Under the pieces are notes generated by a model that ran no database searches, had not been told where the DNA came from, and saw only the letters and a list, made by a program, of their open reading frames with translations. From an uncultured archaeon (GTDB lineage: Archaea > Iainarchaeota > Iainarchaeia > Iainarchaeales > JAAZKV01): a stretch of DNA of 32,000 nucleotides. Location of the stretch: assembly GCA_964551375.1 (NCBI GenBank), contig CAZKBG010000001.1:837329-869328 (forward strand), written 5' to 3'. Shown here one piece after another: positions 8,449-23,797 of the stretch (positions are counted from its first letter, which is position 1; each line of letters starts with the position of its first letter). A program made the position numbers and the translations under genes.

Positions 8449-8526
8449 AAACTCCTATTGTTTATGATTAATACGCGGTTAAATACTTTTAAAAACCTTA
8501 AACAGCAGGCTAATTGTGAAGGTGGC

Positions 8527-9561
8527 ATGATGGCAGAGAAGAAAAAAAGAATGATAAGCGTAACTTTTACAGGAAAAGAACTCCTAAGCAACGGAGTATT
8601 TGACACTAACGATGAAAAAGTGGCAAAACAATACAACGTTCACGAACAGGGAAAAACATACAAACCGCTTACAATCTTAACAGGCGAAAACGAATTACTG
8701 CCGCTTGTAGAAAAAGAACTTGAAACAATGACTGAAGGCGAAGAAAGAATAGTAAAAATGATAGCAAAAGACGCATTCGGAGAAAGAAGAAACGAACTAC
8801 TAAGAGTAGTGCCACTGCAAAACTTCCACGAACAAAAAATCAATCCCTTCCCGGGGCTTGTTGTAAGAATCGGAAACGCAATGGGAAGAGTGCAAAGCGT
8901 AGGAAGCGGAAGAGTAAGAATAGATTTTAACCATCCACTAGCTGGAAGAGATGTTGAATACAGCATAAGACTTGAAAAAGAATTCAAGGACAAGAAAGAA
9001 ATTGCTGAACAAATGTACGAAAAGTATTATTCAAGAATTCCAGGAACAAAAAAAGAATTCAACGAAGACACACTAACTATTACACTTGAAGGAAACGCAT
9101 TCAAGAACTTAACAAAAGTAAACGAAGCAATCACAGACATTGCAAAACAATTCAACTTAAAATTGGATTTTAAAGAAAGTGAAGCATTGCCTGAATTAGT
9201 TCATGAACACACCCATACGGGTGCAGGCGACCACCAAGGACATTCGCACAGCCACGAAGGACATGTTCACGGACCTGAATGCAACCATGACCACGACAAT
9301 CACGAACACGCACATTCTCACAGCCATTCGGCTGCAGGCGAAGAAGAGGAAGAGCACGTTCATGGGCCTAATTGCAATCACACCCATGCGGGTGCAGGCA
9401 ACCATTCGGAAGAGGAAGAAGCTGAAGAAGAACAGGAGAAGCCAGTAAATATTCACAAACTTGCTGATACACTTAGCAAAAATAAGAAGTCAAATGTTCA
9501 ATTTGATACAACAAAAGACACAGCTTCAACAATACAAAGACCAAAGAAGAAAAACTACTAA
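8527..9561 (+). CDS. slyD: SlyD-type FKBP peptidyl-prolyl isomerase with His/Cys/acidic metal-binding tail
   Basis: SlyD/archaeal FKBP motifs: VFDTNDEKVAKQ, PLTILTGENELLPLVEKELETMTEGEE, DAFGERRNELL and the hallmark RIDFNHPLAGRDVEY. A His-rich tail follows (nt 9202-9441). Track start 8458 is TTG, 10 nt from the divergent gene. ATG-ATG at 8527/8530 preceded by AGGTGG is more plausible. Confidence 0.8.
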   Translation: MMAEKKKRMISVTFTGKELLSNGVFDTNDEKVAKQYNVHEQGKTYKPLTILTGENELLPLVEKELETMTEGEERIVKMIAKDAFGERRNELLRVVPLQNFHEQKINPFPGLVVRIGNAMGRVQSVGSGRVRIDFNHPLAGRDVEYSIRLEKEFKDKKEIAEQMYEKYYSRIPGTKKEFNEDTLTITLEGNAFKNLTKVNEAITDIAKQFNLKLDFKESEALPELVHEHTHTGAGDHQGHSHSHEGHVHGPECNHDHDNHEHAHSHSHSAAGEEEEEHVHGPNCNHTHAGAGNHSEEEEAEEEQEKPVNIHKLADTLSKNKKSNVQFDTTKDTASTIQRPKKKNY

Positions 9562-11907: not shown

Positions 11908-12759
11908 ATGAATTATAATTCATGTATGGTTGAAATATCAGGATTCATAATAACATTTAGAGAAACGCTAGAGGTAATACTAATCCTAGGCGCAATAGTA
12001 GCATACTTAGCAGCTACAAAACAACAAAAAAACTTAAAACAAGTATATTCAGGAGCCCTAGCTGGAATGGCACTAAGCGTAATATTTGCATTTGGATTCA
12101 TTGCACTAATTGGAAAATTTGAAGGAGTGGCAGAAGAACTCTTTGAAGGAACTTTGTTATTAGTTGGAGCACTAATTGTTACATTACTAGTAATTTGGCT
12201 AACAAAAACCGCTCACGGTGTAAAAGGAATAAAAGAAAACGTTCTTGACAAACTCAACGTAATGGAAGCAGGAAGCGTATTCTTGATTTCAATGATTGTA
12301 GTACTACGCGAAGGCGTAGAAGCAGTACTATTCCTAGGCGCACTAAGCATAGAAGACTCCGCACTCGCAATAGGCGCAATAATTGGAATAATAATAGGAA
12401 TAGCAATAGGATACTTAATTTACAAAAACCTAATCAAAATTGACTTAATCAAAATGATGGCAGGAATTAGCGTACTATTAGTGCTCTTTGGAGCAGGAAT
12501 GGTTGGACAAGGACTCCATGAACTCCAAGAAGCAAAAGTACTTCCCTTCATGGAAGACAAAATCTATGACATTGGTGGAACACAAAACCCAGACGGAAGC
12601 TACTCACTCCTACACGAAAAAGGATTTATCGGCGGAGTACTAAAAGGAGTATTAGGATATGACTCAAATCCCTCACAACTACAAGTGCTTGGATATATTT
12701 TGTATTTAGTGGTGATGGGGGCGTTATTAATTCCCTTGAAAAAAAAAGGCAGTGTTTAA
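11908..12759 (+). CDS. FTR1/EfeU-family high-affinity iron permease
   Basis: Two REXXE motifs within hydrophobic segments (FRETLEVIL and LREGVEAVL) and multiple TM segments. Its stop codon overlaps the stop of the convergent gene 12756-14105. Confidence 0.8.
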   Translation: MNYNSCMVEISGFIITFRETLEVILILGAIVAYLAATKQQKNLKQVYSGALAGMALSVIFAFGFIALIGKFEGVAEELFEGTLLLVGALIVTLLVIWLTKTAHGVKGIKENVLDKLNVMEAGSVFLISMIVVLREGVEAVLFLGALSIEDSALAIGAIIGIIIGIAIGYLIYKNLIKIDLIKMMAGISVLLVLFGAGMVGQGLHELQEAKVLPFMEDKIYDIGGTQNPDGSYSLLHEKGFIGGVLKGVLGYDSNPSQLQVLGYILYLVVMGALLIPLKKKGSV

Positions 12760-14105
12760 GCTAAATGTAAGCGTCCTTTGTTTTCATACACTTTTCCTAA
12801 GTTTAAAAGCTCATTAAGGGCTTGATCAAAAAGCTTTTTTGAAAAATCTAATTTTAATTTTTCCCATAGTTCTTCTTGTGTTTTTGAGGACAAAGATAAT
12901 TCAATATGTATTCGTTCGTGTATTCCTTCTGCCTTTTTGTAATTTAAATCGGGTTTAAATTCTTGCTCAAGTTCAATTGACTTTTGTAACAAAGATTCAC
13001 TTACTTCGGGGATTAGCAACACATTGAGTAAACCGGTGCGCATAATTTTTTCCCCCTGTTTGATTGTGCTTGTTGTTAAGTTAGGCTCCCTGTTTATTTT
13101 TGCAATTGATGTAGCAATTGCTTCAATTTTATTGTTGGCAATTATATCACTTAATGGTGAATAGCTTACGCTTGTTTCTTTGTTTATTATCTTTGCAAGA
13201 CGTTGTGTTGCAGCATTTATTTCTTCTCGTACTTCATTGGTAAAAGTTGGATTAGGTAATTTATTTGCATAAAATATTGAATATCTAATATCTTCTACGT
13301 CTTTTTGGTCGTATTTTGGAGAGCATAATCCTTCTTCATCAACATTATTTATCAGTTCTGCTTTTTTAGTTGTGAGCTTATTTACTATGCGGTTTGTGTC
13401 ATTTTGGGGGGCTCCAAGCAGATAGTCTATTTCTTTGTAGTTTGGTAGATTTCTTTTAATTAATTGTTCTTGATCTGGGGCAAGAAATGCTGCTTCACTA
13501 TATCTATTTTGAAAAAAGTAATGATCAGAATTATTGGGGTCAATTTTGTTGTATGCTTTCATTAAGTCCAAATATTCTATTTTTTGATAGTGATTTGGGA
13601 TATTTGCAAATAATCCTATGCCCCCAGTTGGACTGAAATTATTTCCTATTAATGATAGCAAGAAAGAGTTAGTTGATTCAGCGTTTATGGACGCGCTGAA
13701 ATAGTTTTGATAATCATTTAAGTTGTTTATTGGGGGTGTGTCAAGCTCTTTTATCCAGTCGAATTCACTTTCTTGTATGGTGTATACTTCAAAAAACTTG
13801 TTTTCTAATTTTGGAAATTTTAATGTTTTGCGATTATATATGTTGTATCTTTTTCCAGTTATTTTTACATTCTTCCCAATTAGATTTTTGTACGATTTAT
13901 TTTCTGGAAAATCAAGATTTATTTTTTGGGGATTTTCAAATTCCATTGTTAAAATGGGTCTGCGAGTCTGTGTTTCAATGCTTAATATTCCTTCAAGTTC
14001 TATTATGCTGTCTGGTTTTGCTGAATTAAATCGTTCTTGTAGCCGTTTTGTTCTTGCTTTGTACTGTGGTAAAGAATAATGTTGTAGTCCTGTGTAAATC
14101 CCCAT
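12756..14105 (-). CDS. MCM-like protein lacking Walker A/B (putative inactivated helicase homologue) with C-terminal winged helix
   Basis: 449-aa ORF with an SD-like AGGAAGTG upstream. By memory alignment, segments DVEDIRYSIFYANKLPNPTFTNEV and IEAIATSIAKINREPNLTTSTIKQGEKIMR match the MCM lid region. The terminal LNELLNLGKVYENKGRLHLA looks wH-like. GLFANIPNHYQK sits where MCM has GDPGTAKS. Not verified by search. Confidence 0.55.
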   Translation of the reverse strand: MGIYTGLQHYSLPQYKARTKRLQERFNSAKPDSIIELEGILSIETQTRRPILTMEFENPQKINLDFPENKSYKNLIGKNVKITGKRYNIYNRKTLKFPKLENKFFEVYTIQESEFDWIKELDTPPINNLNDYQNYFSASINAESTNSFLLSLIGNNFSPTGGIGLFANIPNHYQKIEYLDLMKAYNKIDPNNSDHYFFQNRYSEAAFLAPDQEQLIKRNLPNYKEIDYLLGAPQNDTNRIVNKLTTKKAELINNVDEEGLCSPKYDQKDVEDIRYSIFYANKLPNPTFTNEVREEINAATQRLAKIINKETSVSYSPLSDIIANNKIEAIATSIAKINREPNLTTSTIKQGEKIMRTGLLNVLLIPEVSESLLQKSIELEQEFKPDLNYKKAEGIHERIHIELSLSSKTQEELWEKLKLDFSKKLFDQALNELLNLGKVYENKGRLHLA

Positions 14106-14378
14106 TTTAACACTTCCTTGATTTATTCAGTCTGATTGCTTATTTTCTGAATAAGGCAAATTAGAGAAAGTGTTGGGTTGCCAGAACCACGGATTGGTTG
14201 TAGCATTTCTCTAGTTAATTCTAAGGGCTTTGAAAGATTAATACTTTTTGAGTTTGAAAAGTAAACGCTTGGGGGTTGTGGGCAAAATAAAATCCAAACC
14301 CCTGTTTTTTTGGTTTATTGGCAAAGAACCAAAGCAAGATTTATATCTATCCAAACGCATTAATCTATTGTGTAATAA

Positions 14379-15038
14379 ATGCCCTACAAACTCTCACCCT
14401 CAGCAATTAACTTATTTTTAGAATGTCCTCGCTGCTTTTGGCTAGATAAACACGACAAGTGGAAACGCCCTGCAGGAATATTCCCTTCTTTGCCTTCCGG
14501 AATGGATAGAATACTAAAAGAACACTTTGACAAGTTCAGAGACGCGGGCAAACTTCCTCCAGAAATTTGCGAAAACTCTCACTGCAAACACCTAAAAATC
14601 TTTGGCGAAACAAAAGAAGAAAAAGAACTAATCACTGTATGGAGAAACAACTTCAAAGGAATAAGATACACAGACTCAGAAGGAAATGTTCTATTTGGAG
14701 CAGTAGATAATATTTTGAAAGATAAAGAAACACTTATTGTTCTTGACTACAAAACCCGCGGATTCCCTGTAAAAGAAGACACTCACACACACTACCAAAA
14801 CCAAATGGACACATACAACTTCCTGCTCCGCAAAAACGGATATGAAACAGAAGACTACACTTTTCTATTATTTTACATTCCTTCAAAAGTGCTAGAAACT
14901 GGGGAAGTGGTATTTGACACAACATTAGTAAAGATTAAAACAAACCCAAAAAGCGCAGAAAAAGTGTTCAAAAATGCTTTGAAGTGCCTTGAAGGTAACG
15001 AGCCGGAAGAGAAGTGCGAGTGGTGTGGGAAAGCCTAA
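14379..15038 (+). CDS. Cas4/RecB-like PD-(D/E)XK nuclease with Cys cluster (stand-alone)
   Basis: 219-aa ORF. N-terminal CPRCFW, GAVDNIL, LIVLDYKTRG (D-x-K core), QMDTYNFLL (QxxxY), C-terminal CLEGNEPEEKCEWCG. This is the Cas4/AddB-type Fe-S nuclease layout. Confidence 0.75.
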   Translation: MPYKLSPSAINLFLECPRCFWLDKHDKWKRPAGIFPSLPSGMDRILKEHFDKFRDAGKLPPEICENSHCKHLKIFGETKEEKELITVWRNNFKGIRYTDSEGNVLFGAVDNILKDKETLIVLDYKTRGFPVKEDTHTHYQNQMDTYNFLLRKNGYETEDYTFLLFYIPSKVLETGEVVFDTTLVKIKTNPKSAEKVFKNALKCLEGNEPEEKCEWCGKA

Positions 15039-15051
15039 TTTTTTGTTAGCT

Positions 15052-15537
15052 TTATCGTTTGATAGCATTTTCGATTTTTTCGGCTTTTTTTCTAAATACG
15101 GTGGCTTCTTTTCTTAATTCTCTTGTTAATTCGTAATCTTTCGGTATTGTTCCCCTAACTTTATTTCCTTTTGGTTTTGAAATATGCAGAATTAATGTTT
15201 CAAGATCTTTTAAATACCTAACTTTTTTGAATCTGAAAACACTAAAATTGTTCCATTTTCCAGCATGGTGATCTCTCTTAAAATGCCCCCATAATCTCCA
15301 AAAACTTGATTTGGCAAGTCCAACATAATACAGTTTATCATCACGATATAATGCATATATTCCAGCCCAACCCCGCATCATTTTTCTAAGTCGTTTTCTA
15401 AATGCAGCATCTTCAATAGTTCCTGCTGGAATTCTTTCTAATGAGCCTTTTATTAAAAGTCCTCTATTACCTTTTCTTTTTGGCATAGTGTATTTGTCTA
15501 ACTTAGGTTTTTTCAATCCATCGGTTTTAATGTACAA
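15052..15537 (-). CDS. GIY-YIG domain nuclease-like protein
   Basis: 161-aa ORF. WAGIYALYRDDKLYYVGLAKSSFWRLWGH gives GIY...YVG plus a conserved Arg, followed by LETLILHISKP (conserved Glu). Basic N-terminus. Track start is TTG 15537; first ATG is at 15486. Confidence 0.65.
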   Translation of the reverse strand: MYIKTDGLKKPKLDKYTMPKRKGNRGLLIKGSLERIPAGTIEDAAFRKRLRKMMRGWAGIYALYRDDKLYYVGLAKSSFWRLWGHFKRDHHAGKWNNFSVFRFKKVRYLKDLETLILHISKPKGNKVRGTIPKDYELTRELRKEATVFRKKAEKIENAIKR

Positions 15538-15627
15538 TTGGATGTGGAGTTTATCAAGTTTGATTTAATGAGACAATCTTGGAAAAGTCTCTTACAATTA
15601 ATAAAAAGTTTTTAGATATTCTAAATG

Positions 15628-17514
15628 TTATTTATATTTTGAAAAAATGTTATTGTCTTTGGATAAAAGTCTGGTTGTTTCTGTCCTTACTTCAGCTTTT
15701 AGTTTAAATAGCTTTTTCATGTCCTTACTTATATTTGCAATAGTTTCTTTACTCGGGAGCAAAACAAGTATTTTGCCCAAATCCTCTTCAAGTACTGATG
15801 GGATAGCGGCTCCAATTCTGTATTTTAGCATTTGATTCAAAAATAAATCGGATTTCAAATAGTATAGTAAAAAATAAGGGTCTATTTTAGTTGATTTTAA
15901 AACTCTAAACCCATTTGTGCAAATTGCCCCTGAAAATTCGTTAGTTACAATTGCCGTTGCATGATTTTGTGTGCCGGTTGATACTCCTGCAACTTCAGTT
16001 ATTATTTCATCAGGTTCGAGTTCATATGAGGCACGACTTGGTGCGTCAGCAACTTTGATATTAGTTGCAGAACTTATTTCAGACCCTTCGGAATTTATGT
16101 CAGTAATTTCAACGTAGCGTATTGTGGCCTCGTTGTCTTTAAGTTTTGTTGACTTTTTGGATTTTATTTCAACAAGTTCATTAAGCGGAACAGCTTTTTT
16201 TGATTTTAAATATGAAATTATTTCTTCAAAACGAGGCATGTAAAACTCTGCATCAAGGCGATCTTCAAGTTCACTAAAGTTTTTCAAATAGTACTTATCG
16301 GTGAATTTAAATGAGTCTCCATTTTCAAATTTCTTAAAATGGTTTGTGATTATAGTCATATCTTCATCTAATATTTGAGTCCCGTCTTTGTCAGTTTTGT
16401 ATTTTGGGGTGGCATTTTTATCCCCATAATATCCGACATTTTTAATGATTCCAAAAAAAACTTTGTAGTCTTTACTTTCTTTTTTAGAGTTACTTTTCTG
16501 CAAAAATAAAATTGATGTTTTTATTCCAGTCCCGTGTGGGATAAATGTTTCAGAAGGCATTGAAATAATTCCAAGCACTTTTGTTTTTTTGCGAATGAAA
16601 TCTCTGACAAATTTAGCTGTTTTATTCTCGAGAATTCCATCTGGCAAAACGATTGCAAGTCGCCCACCATCTTTTAGCAAGTTAATGCATCTTTCAATAA
16701 ATAATATTTCTGGGGGTTGTGCTTTATTAAGTGATGAATCATTTTTTGATTGGGCTAATTCAAAGTTCTTTAAATATGTGGGATCTTCAATTTTACCTTG
16801 AATTCCAAACGGTGGATTTGTTAAAACTAAATCATATTCATTTGGGGCTTTGTTTGATGTGAAAAGGGCATTAATATTTTCCAAGCTGTCTCCCAAAATA
16901 ATTTTTGAATTACCATCGCCCTCGAGTACCATTCTAATTTTTGCTAATTTTATTATTGAAGGGCTTATTTCAATTCCGGTGATATTATTTGCTAGCTTAC
17001 TGAATTCTTTGCCTTCTATTTTTTTCATATATCTTAAACTTTGTATTAAAAATCCGCCCGTGCCACAAGCAGGGTCAATTAATTTGAATGAACTTTTTGG
17101 ATTTATGCAATTAACAACTAAATCTATTATTGGGTCAGGGGTTAGAAACTGGCCACGGTCCCCTCGTTGTGTTGAAAAAATAAATTTTTGAAAAGCAATT
17201 CCTTTAACATCATCATCAATTGAACTTAAATTTATGTTGGCAAGTTCTTTCAAAGCATAGGCTAATGTTTTTTCTTTTAGCTTGATTTTATCATTTGACT
17301 CAAATAAAGTTGGATAATCGGAAAGTATGGTTTCAAAAACTTTGTTGGCAGTTGATTCGTTTATTTGTTTGGAGTTTTTATCAGAATAAATTTTAACAAA
17401 GAGAATTTTTGTAAATTCATTTAACGCTTCTTGAGGGGAAAGTCCATCATTGGCATAAATGTGGTTGTGAATTTTGCCAAAAAGTTTAAACAATGTGTTT
17501 GCATCAAAAGACAT
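15628..17514 (-). CDS. N6-adenine DNA methyltransferase (gamma class, HsdM-like) fused to a single HsdS-type target-recognition domain
   Basis: 628-aa ORF. Motif I LIDPACGTGGFL, motif IV VLTNPPFG. The C-terminal ~200 aa resembles one type I specificity TRD (PLNELVEIKSKK...IRYVEITDINSEG...). Confidence 0.9.
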   Translation of the reverse strand: MSFDANTLFKLFGKIHNHIYANDGLSPQEALNEFTKILFVKIYSDKNSKQINESTANKVFETILSDYPTLFESNDKIKLKEKTLAYALKELANINLSSIDDDVKGIAFQKFIFSTQRGDRGQFLTPDPIIDLVVNCINPKSSFKLIDPACGTGGFLIQSLRYMKKIEGKEFSKLANNITGIEISPSIIKLAKIRMVLEGDGNSKIILGDSLENINALFTSNKAPNEYDLVLTNPPFGIQGKIEDPTYLKNFELAQSKNDSSLNKAQPPEILFIERCINLLKDGGRLAIVLPDGILENKTAKFVRDFIRKKTKVLGIISMPSETFIPHGTGIKTSILFLQKSNSKKESKDYKVFFGIIKNVGYYGDKNATPKYKTDKDGTQILDEDMTIITNHFKKFENGDSFKFTDKYYLKNFSELEDRLDAEFYMPRFEEIISYLKSKKAVPLNELVEIKSKKSTKLKDNEATIRYVEITDINSEGSEISSATNIKVADAPSRASYELEPDEIITEVAGVSTGTQNHATAIVTNEFSGAICTNGFRVLKSTKIDPYFLLYYLKSDLFLNQMLKYRIGAAIPSVLEEDLGKILVLLPSKETIANISKDMKKLFKLKAEVRTETTRLLSKDNNIFSKYK

Positions 17515-17538
17515 AGTTCACATATGTGTAAAACTAAT

Positions 17539-18489
17539 TTATAAACCTTCTTCAAGTGTTTTGCCATTATCGTCGCCACGGTGATCGATCTGCATATCTT
17601 TTTCATTAATTGCATCTTTTTTGTTAACTTTTATCTTGGAAATATCTGTTACCCAAGGCGTAACGGGGGTTATTTTATCAAATGGGCTGAATAAAATGGC
17701 AACAATGTAGTTTTGTTGCAAATGATTTTTATCGGCCGAAGATGGTGCAAGTAATTTTGGATTAGCGAACAAAAAATCGTGTTTTCCGGTTCTTATAAAT
17801 AAATCAAGGCCCAATACATTAAATTCATCAATTCGTGGAGTAGCTTGTGTTCTTGCGCTTTTTTCAGACCCTCCTGAAACTAAGTGGGTTTCAATAACTC
17901 TTATTTTTGACATTACGTATGCTAAACGCTCTTCTATTAATTTGTCAAGTTCCTCAATTGGCAAAGATTTTAGTTTAGAAATTATCTTTGACTTGTTGGT
18001 AGTTCGCCCATTAGCATTGTATTTTTTAATGTCGTTGAATGTGTATAGCTCTTCGGAATATTTTGATAGAAAAAGAGGGAGTTCTTTTTTTATAAATTCT
18101 TCGATTTGCTTTTCACTTTTGAATGGAGTGATGTGGATATGTTTTGTTAAAAAGCCAATTAAATTATTGTAATTATAAAGTCGGTGCCATTTTTCTGAAT
18201 TTGACTTTACTCCTTTAGACTCAAGAACAAACCATGGCTTGTCTCCTTTGATTCTAATATAAAAGTCTCCGTGATGATTTGGGTGCTTGTCCCCTTCCCA
18301 TTTTTCTTTGATTCGTAGTAATTCAAATCCTTTTTGCATTAGCTGTCTTTTTAGTAAAATCTCTGAAATTGCGCCCGCTAAATATCCTTGAGCGTTTGGA
18401 CTCATTAGAATAGCTTGTTCAAATGTTGAAATATCTACTGCAAAAAGCCTTTTTACAAGAAGTTCAATTCGGTTTTCCTGTGTGCACAT
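17539..18489 (-). CDS. Putative restriction endonuclease (PD-(D/E)XK candidate) partner of the methyltransferase
   Basis: 316-aa ORF, co-directional and ending 24 nt upstream of the MTase start. Candidate catalytic core HHGDFYIRIKGDKPWFVLESKGVKS (D ... E-S-K). No other domain recognised. Confidence 0.6.
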   Translation of the reverse strand: MCTQENRIELLVKRLFAVDISTFEQAILMSPNAQGYLAGAISEILLKRQLMQKGFELLRIKEKWEGDKHPNHHGDFYIRIKGDKPWFVLESKGVKSNSEKWHRLYNYNNLIGFLTKHIHITPFKSEKQIEEFIKKELPLFLSKYSEELYTFNDIKKYNANGRTTNKSKIISKLKSLPIEELDKLIEERLAYVMSKIRVIETHLVSGGSEKSARTQATPRIDEFNVLGLDLFIRTGKHDFLFANPKLLAPSSADKNHLQQNYIVAILFSPFDKITPVTPWVTDISKIKVNKKDAINEKDMQIDHRGDDNGKTLEEGL

Positions 18490-18594: not shown

Positions 18595-19926
18595 TTGGAG
18601 TTTAAGGTGGTCTATTTGGCAGGATACGAGGATTTTGTGGATTTGGGTTATAAGCCTAATAATAAGGATGTTATTGCGAGTTTTAAGGTGAAGGTGCCTG
18701 AGTGGGAAACTCCTGAAAGGGCATTTGGAGCAGTTGCTTCTGAGAGTTCTGTAGGAACTTGGACTGATTTAGATATTTGGGCAAAATACCCTCATGTGAA
18801 GAAAGTTGCGGGGAAGGTTTACTCAATTGAACACTCGCCAAACGGATACTGGATAAAAATAGCTTACCCTGAAGACCATTTTGAGCAGGCAAATCCAAGC
18901 CAAATACTAGCATCAATTGCTGGAAACGTTTTTGGAATGAAAGCAGTGGACGGACTAAGACTACAAGACATTGAATTTACAAAAACCATGATGAAAGAAT
19001 ACAGAGGACCGCAATTTGGAATAAAAGGAGTAAGAAAAATCTTTGGAGTAGACAAAAGACCACTAATGCTATCAGTTGCTAAGCCAAAAGTTGGAATGAC
19101 TACCGCAGAACACGCGGATATTGGATACCAAATATGGACTGGCGGTTTAGATCTATTAAAAGATGATGAAAACTTAACTAACCAGAAATTTAATCCATTC
19201 AAAAAAAGAGTAACTGCTTCGCTAAAACTAAGAAACAAAGCAGAGAAAGAAACAGGAGAAAGAAAATCATACTTAATTAACGTAACCGCTCCAACAGTGC
19301 AAGAAATGATTGAAAGAGCAAGGTATGTAAAAAAAGAAGGCGGAGAATACGTAATGATTGACATCATTGCGTCAGGATGGACTGCATTAAACAGTTTAAG
19401 AGAAGAATGCGAAGATTTAGGACTTGCAATACACGCGCATAGAGCAATGCACGGCGCAATGACAAGAAACCAAGACCACGGATTCTCAATGAACTGCGTA
19501 TCAAAATTCTCAAGATTAATCGGAGTAGACCAATTACACATTGGAACTGTGTTTGGAAAACTTGTCAGCCCTAAAGAAGAAGTTTTAGAGTGCCAAAAGA
19601 ACTTAACTTTGCCAAAAGTAAAGGCTGATATGACGCACCACTACTTAAACCAAGATTGGGCAAAAATGGAGCAAGTATTCCCAGTATCAAGCGGAGGACT
19701 ACACCCTGGAATTGTGGATAAAATAATGGGACTATTAGGAACTAATATTATGCTGCAGCTTGGCGGAGGAGTGCACGGACACCCGCAAGGAAGCCACGCA
19801 GGAGCTGTTGCAATGAGAGCAGCTGTTGAAGCGGTTCTTGACAAAATTAGCGCTGAAGAAAAAGCAAAAACATGCCCAGAGCTAAAAGTAGCATTAAAAC
19901 AATGGGGACACTCAATGCCAAAATAA
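18595..19926 (+). CDS. rbcL: Ribulose-1,5-bisphosphate carboxylase/oxygenase large subunit, form III (archaeal type)
   Basis: Full-length resemblance to Thermococcus-type RbcL: AVASESSVGTWT, ILASIAGNVFGMK, GGLDLLKDDENL, LAIHAHRAMHGA, VSSGGLHPG, LQLGGGVHGHPQG. Track start is TTG 18595. In-frame GTG 18607 preceded by GGAG is an alternative start. Confidence 0.95.
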   Translation: MEFKVVYLAGYEDFVDLGYKPNNKDVIASFKVKVPEWETPERAFGAVASESSVGTWTDLDIWAKYPHVKKVAGKVYSIEHSPNGYWIKIAYPEDHFEQANPSQILASIAGNVFGMKAVDGLRLQDIEFTKTMMKEYRGPQFGIKGVRKIFGVDKRPLMLSVAKPKVGMTTAEHADIGYQIWTGGLDLLKDDENLTNQKFNPFKKRVTASLKLRNKAEKETGERKSYLINVTAPTVQEMIERARYVKKEGGEYVMIDIIASGWTALNSLREECEDLGLAIHAHRAMHGAMTRNQDHGFSMNCVSKFSRLIGVDQLHIGTVFGKLVSPKEEVLECQKNLTLPKVKADMTHHYLNQDWAKMEQVFPVSSGGLHPGIVDKIMGLLGTNIMLQLGGGVHGHPQGSHAGAVAMRAAVEAVLDKISAEEKAKTCPELKVALKQWGHSMPK

Positions 19927-22781: not shown

Positions 22782-22854
22782 GCCTCTTTCGTCCAGCGGT
22801 CTAGGATTCACCCCTGTCACGGGTGCGACCCGGGTTCAAATCCCGGAGGAGGCG
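22782..22854 (+). tRNA. tRNA-Asp: tRNA-Asp (anticodon GUC)
   Basis: Hand-folded cloverleaf. Acceptor GCCTCTT/AGGAGGC (one G-U), D stem GTCC/GGAT, anticodon stem CACCC/GGGTG with loop CTGTCAC. T arm CCGGG-TTCAAAT-CCCGG, discriminator G. 73 nt, no encoded CCA, no intron. Confidence 0.9.
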
Positions 22855-23797
22855 CTTCAACACATTTTATTGGACAAAAGCTTTGTTTTGGCAACCATTG
22901 TTTTTTTCCTTTAAAGTATATTTCTTTCCATCTTTTTAGTTGAGCTTTTTCAGAGTAGTTGTAAATGACTCCAATAGCGTCTGTTAATTTTTTTTGTTTT
23001 CTAATTATGGAAAAACAAATTTTCTTGTGAAATATTAAGGTGTCTTCAAATTTTAAAGTTTCGACTGAAAATAAGTTTTTTGTTCTTGTTAAAATTCTTC
23101 CATTAATTTTAGAATCTGATTGCCCTATTTTATGGGCAAGACGAAGAGCAGATTTTATTGTGAAAAATCTAATTAGCAAGTTTTGGGTATATTCTAATAA
23201 TTCAAAATTAGTGCTTGCTGCGATGGCAAGCCGGACTCCAAACCTATTGCTTGCTTTAATTATTGGGCAGCCTTCCGAATCAGCCAGTCCTTGAATAAAA
23301 TCGGCTGGAAATACTTCGATTAGCGGCTTTATTAAATCAAAATTAATTTTCGCCGCTCTTACAAATTCATATAGTTCTTTACTTCGGATGTTTGTGTGAA
23401 ACATATTTGGTTTGTGAAAGTGCACTGGATAGTCTGTAGTTTTGTTAAGTATTGTTGTAACGCAATGTGAAAACTTTTCCACAAATTCTTTATCAATTGC
23501 GCCTAGTTGAATGCAATAATCATAGTTGCTTTTGTGAATGCTTATGTTTCCATCTCCAAACATAACGCCCAAAAAGTAGGACATTTCTTGGCTTGGCGCT
23601 ATTTTGAAAGTATTTTTTTGAATTTTTGATAACGGATTGTTTTTCCAATAAGATAAGGTTCCAGTTGAAATAGAAATTCCTTTTTCAAGCAACGTGCGTT
23701 TTATTCTTTTAAATCCAAGTCCTTCTTTAATTAGTTGTTTTATTTGGGATTTAAGCGCTTCTTGTTCACTTCCAGCCAAGTCAGAAAACCGAGTCAT
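22817..23797 (-). CDS. Free-standing double-motif LAGLIDADG homing-endonuclease-like protein with N-terminal HTH
   Basis: 326-aa ORF. Motifs SYFLGVMFGDGNISI and ADFIQGLADSEGCPI lie about 90 aa apart, and both acidic residues are present. N-terminal KEGLGFKRIKRTLLEKGISISTGTLSYW looks HTH-like. The last 38 nt (22817-22854) are antisense to tRNA-Asp. Confidence 0.75.
   Translation of the reverse strand: MTRFSDLAGSEQEALKSQIKQLIKEGLGFKRIKRTLLEKGISISTGTLSYWKNNPLSKIQKNTFKIAPSQEMSYFLGVMFGDGNISIHKSNYDYCIQLGAIDKEFVEKFSHCVTTILNKTTDYPVHFHKPNMFHTNIRSKELYEFVRAAKINFDLIKPLIEVFPADFIQGLADSEGCPIIKASNRFGVRLAIAASTNFELLEYTQNLLIRFFTIKSALRLAHKIGQSDSKINGRILTRTKNLFSVETLKFEDTLIFHKKICFSIIRKQKKLTDAIGVIYNYSEKAQLKRWKEIYFKGKKQWLPKQSFCPIKCVEAPPPGFEPGSHP

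Follow-up and report, generated by a model that had tools for sequence, protein, structure and literature searches.

A rare archaeal protein family with an MCM-derived C-terminus and no recognisable MCM-type ATPase motifs

Introduction

In archaea, the minichromosome maintenance protein MCM is usually seen as a nearly invariant and mostly single-copy core gene of replication. Extra MCM paralogues also occur on integrated elements and viruses of archaea; as far as is known, these have the full length of MCM and have kept the ATPase motifs intact. Inactive AAA+ paralogues can serve as structural subunits, e.g. the delta and delta-prime subunits of clamp loaders. Literature searches brought up no motor-less archaeal derivative of MCM. 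Here we analyse a candidate for such a protein, P0001, which consists of 449 amino acids (aa) and is encoded in a stretch of 32 000 nucleotides (nt) from an uncultured archaeon of the Iainarchaeota (GenBank assembly GCA_964551375.1, contig CAZKBG010000001.1, positions 837,329 to 869,328; this entire stretch is called the window below). An initial annotation, made from the DNA letters without database searches, had proposed that P0001 is a shortened MCM homologue that has lost catalysis.

Among the closest described systems is archaeal MCM itself, as represented by the structures from Pyrococcus furiosus (4r7y, 4r7z) and by MCM3 of Thermococcus kodakarensis (8x7t). The family to which P0001 belongs appears to have the same domain order, i.e. 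an OB-type N-terminus, a central domain, a lid and a winged helix; profile-profile homology is significant over the lid and the winged helix, MCM is exclusive among the top structure matches and, in two lineages, a canonical mcm gene adjoins the family gene. Family proteins are, however, about 230-250 residues shorter than MCM and lack subdomain A, the zinc finger, the Walker A and B motifs, the Arg finger and a conserved sensor-2 arginine, and their middle domain is not alignable to the AAA+ core. Moreover, in contrast to MCM, which is a universal single-copy core gene, the family is found rarely, diverges fast and has a foreign composition.

The extra MCM paralogues of integrated elements and viruses, for instance in Methanococcales and Thermococcales, resemble the family in being MCM-derived and in travelling with the mobilome; by comparison, the family genes are truncated and motif-less and stand alone instead of lying inside a recognisable provirus or plasmid. 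With the delta and delta-prime subunits of clamp loaders the family may have a principle in common, namely the recruitment of dead homologues for scaffolding or regulation, but these subunits retain a recognisable AAA+ alpha/beta fold, whereas the core region of the family is unrecognisable by sequence. In function, a motor-less MCM paralogue is best likened to MCMBP of eukaryotes, which is MCM-like, lacks Walker A and works by binding MCM subunits and not as a helicase (PMC9018068). According to its legend, figure 3 of the same paper shows MCMBP with a Walker B and an Arg-finger element (PMC9018068), neither of which is present in the family. In addition, MCMBP is a conserved cellular factor restricted to eukaryotes, whereas the family behaves as a mobile accessory gene. 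As a Pfam-A scan of all seven family members at E<=1 listed no MCMBP family, the family is not MCMBP by sequence. For MCMs of mobile elements, heterocomplexes with the cellular MCM have been proposed (PMC3984812, reporting its reference 58).

Results and discussion

A rare family of strongly diverged proteins

Single-sequence searches with P0001 yielded nothing significant in Pfam, NCBIfam or PADLOC, where no model matches, or by phmmer against PDB sequences. When 1.84 billion cluster representatives were scanned exhaustively with HMMER, six relatives came up (E 4e-81 to 6e-26). Five of these are complete, with 456-465 aa, and the sixth is truncated close to the end of its contig; P0001 is thus not a chance open reading frame (ORF). 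In a word-indexed homologue search of 5.8 billion proteins P0001 matched itself only, and the family profile retrieved P0001 and P0006 only. A search of genome contigs with the single protein found no relative, and a search of metagenome contigs only re-found one known locus. The closest homologues, which share one 90% cluster, hardly differ from one another. Two family members come from metagenome-assembled genomes of Candidatus Diapherotrites/Iainarchaeum, i.e. DPANN archaea, and all database copies are either annotated as 'hypothetical protein' or nameless. The family is very rare, conserved and has been unannotated until now.

Its members differ from each other in a star-like pattern with pairwise identities of 32-45%. 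The alignment of the seven sequences nevertheless contains 30 invariant columns, 17 of which are concentrated in the middle domain (G154, G162, G164, P170, Y185, D189, R201, S203, A205, I216, R218, E225, D227, Y228, E250, G259 and L260). On the best reading of all our data, P0001 has four parts, i.e. an N-terminal OB-type barrel, a conserved middle domain, an MCM-type lid bundle and an MCM-type winged helix (table 1).

The C-terminal 40% of P0001 is derived from MCM

Four independent lines of evidence show that the C-terminal 40% of P0001 (approximately residues 262-449) is derived from MCM. Compared by hhalign with 30 C-terminal fragments of MCM, the family aligned over 174 columns that span its residues 262-449 (Prob 92%, E 5.5e-7), and the same region was found with 21 full-length archaeal MCMs from reference genomes (E 2.7e-5). 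In a search of all PDB sequences with the hidden Markov model (HMM) of the family, P. furiosus MCM ranked first (4r7z, E 0.004; 4r7y, E 0.017), with profile matches to MCM lids spanning E 0.004-0.07. T. kodakarensis MCM3 (8x7t_D) was aligned collinearly by HMMER, with family positions 280-454 on MCM positions 507-681, i.e. reaching the MCM C-terminus, and a weak additional piece, also collinear, placed the last barrel strands of the family on MCM3 217-260. Similarly, positions 508-678 of a viral 'DNA helicase' profile in PHROGs, which comprises 683 positions, match family residues 271-446 (E ~0.003-0.004).

The lid alignment that the initial annotation had drawn (DVEDIRYSIFYANKLPNP.. on LRKYIAYARK..P and IEAIATSIAKIN.. 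on LEALIRLSEA..) was recovered by both HMMER and hhalign. It retains the MCM signature Y..YA..x..P, with the helix order kept through to the C-terminus, and AAA+ proteins other than MCM (Orc1/Cdc6, RuvB) are absent from the profile matches. At the level of single sequences the MCM AAA-lid model PF17855 has no match and no Pfam MCM model is significant, with weak Pfam matches of family members to RPA_C, MCM5_C and WHD_MCM8. The family HMM also matched the C-terminal winged helix of RPA32 (9f29_C, E 0.008). The terminal ~60 aa, previously read as the MCM winged helix, thus form a winged helix of the MCM/RPA32 type according to both PDB profile matches and structure prediction, which gives them a helix-helix-helix-strand-strand topology (residues 391-449) at a predicted local distance difference test score (pLDDT) of 86-92.

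This AlphaFold2 (AF2) model was built from the family alignment (A1) of seven sequences. It reaches a pLDDT of 64 and a predicted template modelling score (pTM) of 0.52 overall, its confidently modelled stretches being residues 267-449 and most of residues 11-135; a model of P0001 made from the single sequence was unusable (pLDDT 34). A Foldseek search with the alignment-based model, a check that had been proposed along with the MCM assignment, returned MCM subunits for all 50 of the 50 best PDB matches, consisting of eukaryotic Mcm2-7 chains and archaeal 8x7t, with E-values from 7e-8 to 8e-5 and alignments of 425-651 columns that cover nearly the whole query. The TM-scores to MCM are low (0.22-0.38). 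Overall, the family has both the AAA-lid and the C-terminal winged helix of MCM.

The elements of an MCM-type ATPase are missing

A pattern scan found GxxxxGK[ST], GK[ST] and hhhhD[DE] all absent from P0001, just as the initial annotation had stated for a P-loop and a Walker B motif. The strict GxxxxGK[ST] pattern is unsuited to MCM, since 16 of the 25 canonical archaeal MCMs extracted also fail it; the P-loop of MCM has the deviant form GDPGxxKS. The statement also holds with MCM-specific patterns. The MCM-type Walker A motif G[DE]P[GSA]xxK[ST] is present in 20 of 21 canonical MCMs, and both the Walker B motif hhD[DE]xD[KR] and the Arg-finger motif SRFD in all 21, whereas none of the three occurs in any of the seven family members. 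An intact P-loop had therefore not been overlooked.

In the profile alignment, the stretch of the MCM profile from Walker B to the Arg finger has no partner in the family (hhalign). Sensor 1 falls into this unaligned stretch, and the sensor-1 pattern, which matched only 4 of the 21 canonical MCMs, is uninformative. The one catalytic position that is alignable with confidence is the sensor-2 arginine (TARQLE in MCM). It is not conserved in the family, where this column reads N/R/D/R/K/T, with N325 in P0001, and is followed by an invariant lysine. Thus, the missing AAA+ elements are Walker A, Walker B, the Arg finger and the sensor-2 arginine, and because of their absence P0001 should be unable to hydrolyse ATP in the manner of MCM, i.e. 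it appears, with good support from these motif comparisons, to be ATPase-dead in the MCM sense. As it also lacks the zinc finger, we refrain from filing it as an MCM helicase, and it would seem best described as an MCM-derived pseudo-helicase.

A barrel-like N-terminus and a family-specific middle domain

The AF2 model of the N-terminal third consists of a helix (residues 13-28), strands at 34-43, 50-53 and 62-65, a second helix (71-75) and strands at 79-87 and 104-112, with a pLDDT of mostly 65-84 and ~45 at residues 91-100. This corresponds to an OB-type barrel with the classic strand order, and SSB-type OB proteins are among the matches of the model in BFVD, a collection of viral structures. 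The suggestion that this third is an OB fold is in keeping with the model; in sequence, it matches the N-terminal domain of MCM without significance (hhalign, E 0.06), and Pfam MCM_OB has no match in the family members. For the former reason we rate the OB assignment as model-level evidence only. With a single cysteine in the whole protein and no CxxC (pattern scan), P0001 has no zinc finger (subdomain B) and also no MCM subdomain A, as only helix 13-28 precedes the barrel. A side observation concerns the same domain in P0010, which belongs to the P0004 cluster and is encoded on a contig of 1487 bp from the Joint Genome Institute (JGI). Here MGRTKKVGSTGRFGARYGKTTRKK stands in place of the first ~100 residues, i.e. 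of the OB domain, and resembles the beginning of a small ribosomal protein; this replacement would reflect either a rearrangement beside the gene or a chimeric short contig.

The middle domain (approximately residues 142-265) occupies the position of the ATPase core, which is ~90 residues longer. Conservation within the family is highest here, and the AF2 model gives this domain a pLDDT of 30-48. Comparison with the MCM core by hhalign is not significant (E 0.3); its best collinear path would place AFLLSLIG on AIALQLFGG and E225-x-D227 on the DExD of Walker B, and we take this path as a lead, not as a result. The initial annotation had placed the remains of the P-loop at FLLSLIG.. / GLFANIPNHYQK; this does lie on the collinear path but, owing to the lack of significance, is not established. 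All six peptides quoted in the initial annotation are present in P0001, at residues 39, 80, 148, 164, 269 and 327.

Searching PDB sequences with a profile of the middle domain gave spurious matches only (GMC oxidase, E 0.011; ECF sigma factors, E~1). In Pfam, NCBIfam, PADLOC, PHROGs and PDB sequences, the domain has no match to any family of nucleases, recombinases or transposases. Compared by eye with the motif patterns of DDE, serine-recombinase, Toprim, PD-(D/E)XK and HUH proteins, its invariant residues appear to fit none of them, in spacing or in residue type.

Genomic contexts suggest a foreign, horizontally moving single gene

The neighbours of the family gene differ in every lineage. 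They include VapBC/Fic genes, a ferredoxin/Fur/rubrerythrin group, an AbiEii pair, a PD-(D/E)XK gene different from that in the window (L005) and an ArdC-like gene together with an integrase. In the latter context (L007, 822-5100), P0005 is flanked by an ArdC-N/M78-peptidase-like gene on one side and a tyrosine integrase gene on the other, and an ORF of 120 aa with very low GC follows directly downstream; this is the sole context that resembles a classical integrated element.

The only recurring protein-coding neighbour is canonical MCM. On two Diapherotrites-type contigs the family gene is located directly 3' of mcm. On one of these (L003, 1-1788), P0006 starts 4 nt past the stop codon of an MCM gene whose product reads ...RLSEASARVRLS...DPETGKIDIDI...GDIYKPRHGF (MCM_lid, E 7.7e-8); on the other (L093, 5962-10909), P0007 follows at a distance of 344 nt and on the same strand after an MCM gene whose product of 1231 aa carries, in the ATPase core, an intein with a LAGLIDADG domain. 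The MCM C-termini of these two hosts are 78% identical, whereas the family proteins are only 37% identical.

tRNA genes, i.e. classic targets of integration, are the other kind of neighbour. A tRNA-Thr gene (TGT; L088, 9742-9813) is found 188 nt upstream of the P0008/P0004 homologue in L088, L090 and L091, contig L006 starts at this very tRNA gene, and positions 1-21 of L005, 296 nt upstream of P0003, read as the T-arm and acceptor 3' end of a tRNA. These tRNA genes also account for the frequent ends of short contigs a little upstream of the family gene. A replication origin had been considered as a cause of the contig breaks and was dropped, since the breaks are explained by tRNA genes (L005, L006), mcm (L003) and a local junction in the window.

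Also the composition of the gene sets it apart. The GC content at third codon positions (GC3) of family genes is 0.29-0.38, compared with 0.48-0.74 for adjacent host genes (L003, L093, L088, L004), most of which lie at 0.57-0.74. In L003 and L088 the genes flanking on both sides have host-like values (0.48-0.70), such that the family gene represents a single-gene low-GC island. The genome of the window is itself low in GC; here the gene (GC3 0.25) blends in with its neighbours (0.21-0.38). Family genes occur in one copy per contig, and neither terminal repeats nor target duplications were seen. Thus, foreign codon composition in GC-rich hosts, the lack of a conserved neighbourhood and placement 3' of mcm or tRNA genes together mean that the family gene behaves as an accessory, horizontally moving single gene.

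In the window, Logan contigs from two sequencing runs (L001, L002) both end at position 14262, and the contigs that carry the adjacent restriction-modification (R-M) block (L094, L095) start at 14248 and continue unbroken into the RuBisCO gene. The resulting 15-nt overlap at 14248-14262 lies 143-157 nt upstream of the P0001 gene and suggests an alternative path in the population. As the gene is as low in GC as the R-M block and is separated from it by this reproducible junction, the earlier description of P0001 as sitting at an 'island edge' is a fair one. No att-like direct repeats were found flanking the R-M block or the spacer, and the spacer (14106-14378) shows no Rfam match, no tRNA fragment and no significant RNA structure (fold z -0.9).

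Interpretation and alternatives

On balance, we lean towards P0001 being an MCM derivative of Diapherotrites/Iainarchaeota that is non-catalytic, spreads horizontally and works through binding to DNA or to the host MCM. The two components of this reading deserve to be graded separately: that P0001 is a non-catalytic MCM derivative we consider probable, and that it acts on or with host MCM or replication is a tentative proposal. Mechanistically, P0001 would act by binding and not by unwinding. Its OB and winged-helix parts would contact DNA, and MCM-like surfaces could contact the host MCM and in this way modulate helicase loading or activity; the position of the gene beside canonical mcm in L003 and L093 hints at such binding indirectly. 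Such an action would resemble that of MCMBP, i.e. an MCM binder without Walker A, and the heterocomplexes proposed for mobile-element MCMs. As the gene behaves like an imported accessory, P0001 seems more likely to modulate replication than to unwind DNA. Of the original notion of an MCM derivative with lost catalysis, the lid and winged helix (hhalign, E 5.5e-7) and the loss of the motifs have held up, whereas the N-terminus and the middle domain are without significant sequence match to MCM.

Several observations weigh against this interpretation. The alignments of the N-terminus (E 0.06) and of the middle domain (E 0.3) with MCM are not significant, and the AF2 model, which is of moderate quality overall (pLDDT 64, pTM 0.52), gives no information on the middle domain. 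Invariant polar residues are dense in this domain and could belong to an active site that went unrecognised, which is why 'non-catalytic' holds for an MCM-type ATPase only. The link of P0001 to MCM or to DNA is putative. The adjacency to mcm is seen in two of seven lineages and, as these two hosts are related, may go back to one historical event. Finally, relatives are absent from IMG/VR viral contigs, and tblastn against phage and plasmid records gave no match, so that no carrier element emerged from these searches.

Should the middle domain be enzymatic, for instance by cleaving DNA or transferring strands, the MCM scaffold would have been rebuilt around it, giving rise to a self-propagating single-gene element that homes beside mcm and tRNA genes. 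Alternatively, P0001 could be a weapon in replication conflict, entering the MCM ring of the host as a subunit that poisons or hijacks it. We consider these readings unlikely. A little less likely again is a self-mobile, selfish gene in which the middle domain is a new catalytic module, nuclease- or recombinase-like, within the MCM scaffold and the OB and winged-helix parts target DNA. The single-gene low-GC3 islands between genes of host composition in L003 and L088, the placement beside highly conserved sequences, i.e. mcm 3' ends and tRNA genes, the star-like pairwise divergence, the assembly junction just upstream of the gene in the window and the clustering of 17 of the 30 invariants in the middle domain, including D189, R201, S203, R218, E225, D227, Y228 and E250, would all fit such a gene. 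Yet the middle domain is without match in the nuclease, recombinase and transposase families searched, terminal repeats and target duplications were not seen, there is one copy per contig and, in the window, the 4-nt overlap with the FTR1 gene leaves no room for an element end.

Improbable to a similar degree is a generic DNA-binding protein of OB and winged-helix parts, such as a transcription factor or an origin-binding initiator, whose MCM likeness would be convergent or that of any AAA+ lid and winged helix. It is true that winged-helix matches include RPA32, TrmB, SarA and PaaX-type regulators, that TM-scores to MCM are low and that no Pfam MCM model is significant on single sequences. 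The sequence signal is, however, MCM-specific, with no Orc1/Cdc6, RuvB or other AAA+ protein among the profile matches, the lid alignment keeps the MCM signature and helix order to the C-terminus, and all of the 50 best structural matches are MCM subunits.

The initial annotation had also raised the possibility of a DNA sensor or regulator working with the neighbouring nucleases and methyltransferase. In the window the P0001 gene is indeed divergent, across a 273-nt spacer, from the Cas4-like PD-(D/E)XK gene of the R-M block and lies near the methyltransferase-specificity fusion, a different PD-(D/E)XK gene is found nearby in L005, and toxin-antitoxin or Abi genes flank other homologues. The R-M genes of the window, however, recur in none of the six other homologue contexts, neighbours vary per lineage, the only recurring protein-coding neighbour is canonical MCM and PADLOC has no matching model. 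This makes such a role very unlikely, and P0001 is not a component of the adjacent R-M block. Its shortening by ~230-250 residues, the loss of all catalytic motifs and its placement in a low-GC variable region might suggest that P0001 is the decaying remnant of an MCM gene from a mobile element, either a pseudogene or a functionless protein. This is effectively refuted by the conservation of the family. Six lineages have intact ORFs of 449-465 aa that are only 32-45% identical but agree in 30 invariant columns and in their domain boundaries, and neutral decay would have broken the frame at such divergence; moreover, the most conserved part, with 17 of these columns, is precisely the supposedly dead region replacing the ATPase core.

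P0001 thus defines an unannotated protein family. A putative pseudo-helicase that is encoded beside mcm in some DPANN genomes and moves as a lone foreign gene suggests that replication in these reduced and symbiotic archaea may be modulated or attacked by MCM mimics. If P0001 does bind the host MCM, it would provide a simple prokaryotic model for non-catalytic paralogues that regulate a replicative helicase. A catalytic middle domain, on the other hand, would make it a new enzyme family on a borrowed scaffold.

The gene and its surroundings in the window

The gene content of the window, with a form III-type RuBisCO, KaiC-like ATPases and an ATPase of the type IV pilus/archaellum type, fits a small archaeal genome, as does the length of the source contig (946 kb). 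The positions of P0001, its parts and neighbouring features are compiled in table 1.

Table 1. Features in the window; positions count from its first nucleotide.
Feature	Position	Strand	Remarks
P0001, probable non-catalytic MCM-derived protein	12756..14105	minus	complete ORF, ATG start, 449 aa plus stop; family of 7 clusters
P0001 residues 13-112, N-terminal helix, then predicted five-stranded beta-barrel, order b1-b2-b3-helix-b4-b5, OB-fold topology	13770..14069	minus	AF2 model
P0001 residues 142-265, family-specific conserved middle domain at position of AAA+ alpha/beta core	13311..13682	minus	invariant columns
P0001 residues 267-382, helical bundle homologous to MCM AAA-lid	12960..13307	minus	hhalign, PDB profile matches
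P0001 residues 391-449, C-terminal winged helix of MCM/RPA32 type	12759..12935	minus	model and PDB profile matches
Upstream spacer, 273 nt, common with divergent Cas4-like gene	14106..14378	none	assembly junction inside
Putative R-M block	14379-18489		compact, low GC
Cas4-like PD-(D/E)XK nuclease	14379-15038		terminal Cys clusters
161-aa ORF	15052-15537	minus	no Pfam, NCBIfam or PADLOC match
N6-adenine methyltransferase fused to specificity/target recognition (S/TRD) domain	15628-17514		MAD2/MAD5-like matches below curated cut-offs
316-aa ORF	17539-18489		faint SduA/DUF4263 match only
RuBisCO large-subunit gene	18595-19926	+	immediately right of R-M block
tRNA-Asp (GTC)	22782-22855	+	only tRNA in window; overlaps 39 nt with 3' end of opposite-strand ORF
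326-aa ORF	22817-23797	minus	LAGLIDADG_3 domain
FKBP/SlyD-like peptidyl-prolyl isomerase	8458-9561	+	FKBP26 IF domain; long His/Glu-rich C-terminal tail, HxHxH repeats

On its 3' side, the P0001 gene converges on a gene for an FTR1 permease, with the 3' ends of the two overlapping by 4 nt. On its other side, the R-M block is arranged in the order Cas4-like gene, 161-aa ORF, N6-methyltransferase fused to a specificity domain and 316-aa ORF, followed by RuBisCO. Within the 161-aa ORF, GIYALYRDDKLYYVG reads like the GIY-x10-YIG nuclease motif followed by the conserved arginine, as judged by eye, and the 316-aa ORF may be the endonuclease of the block.

The RuBisCO in the window is probably of form III, which is known from DPANN archaea. 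Its exact protein is not on record in the assembly index, though those of its neighbours are. The FKBP/SlyD-like gene lies in one stretch with the FTR1 iron permease gene, and the tail of its product is possibly metal-binding.

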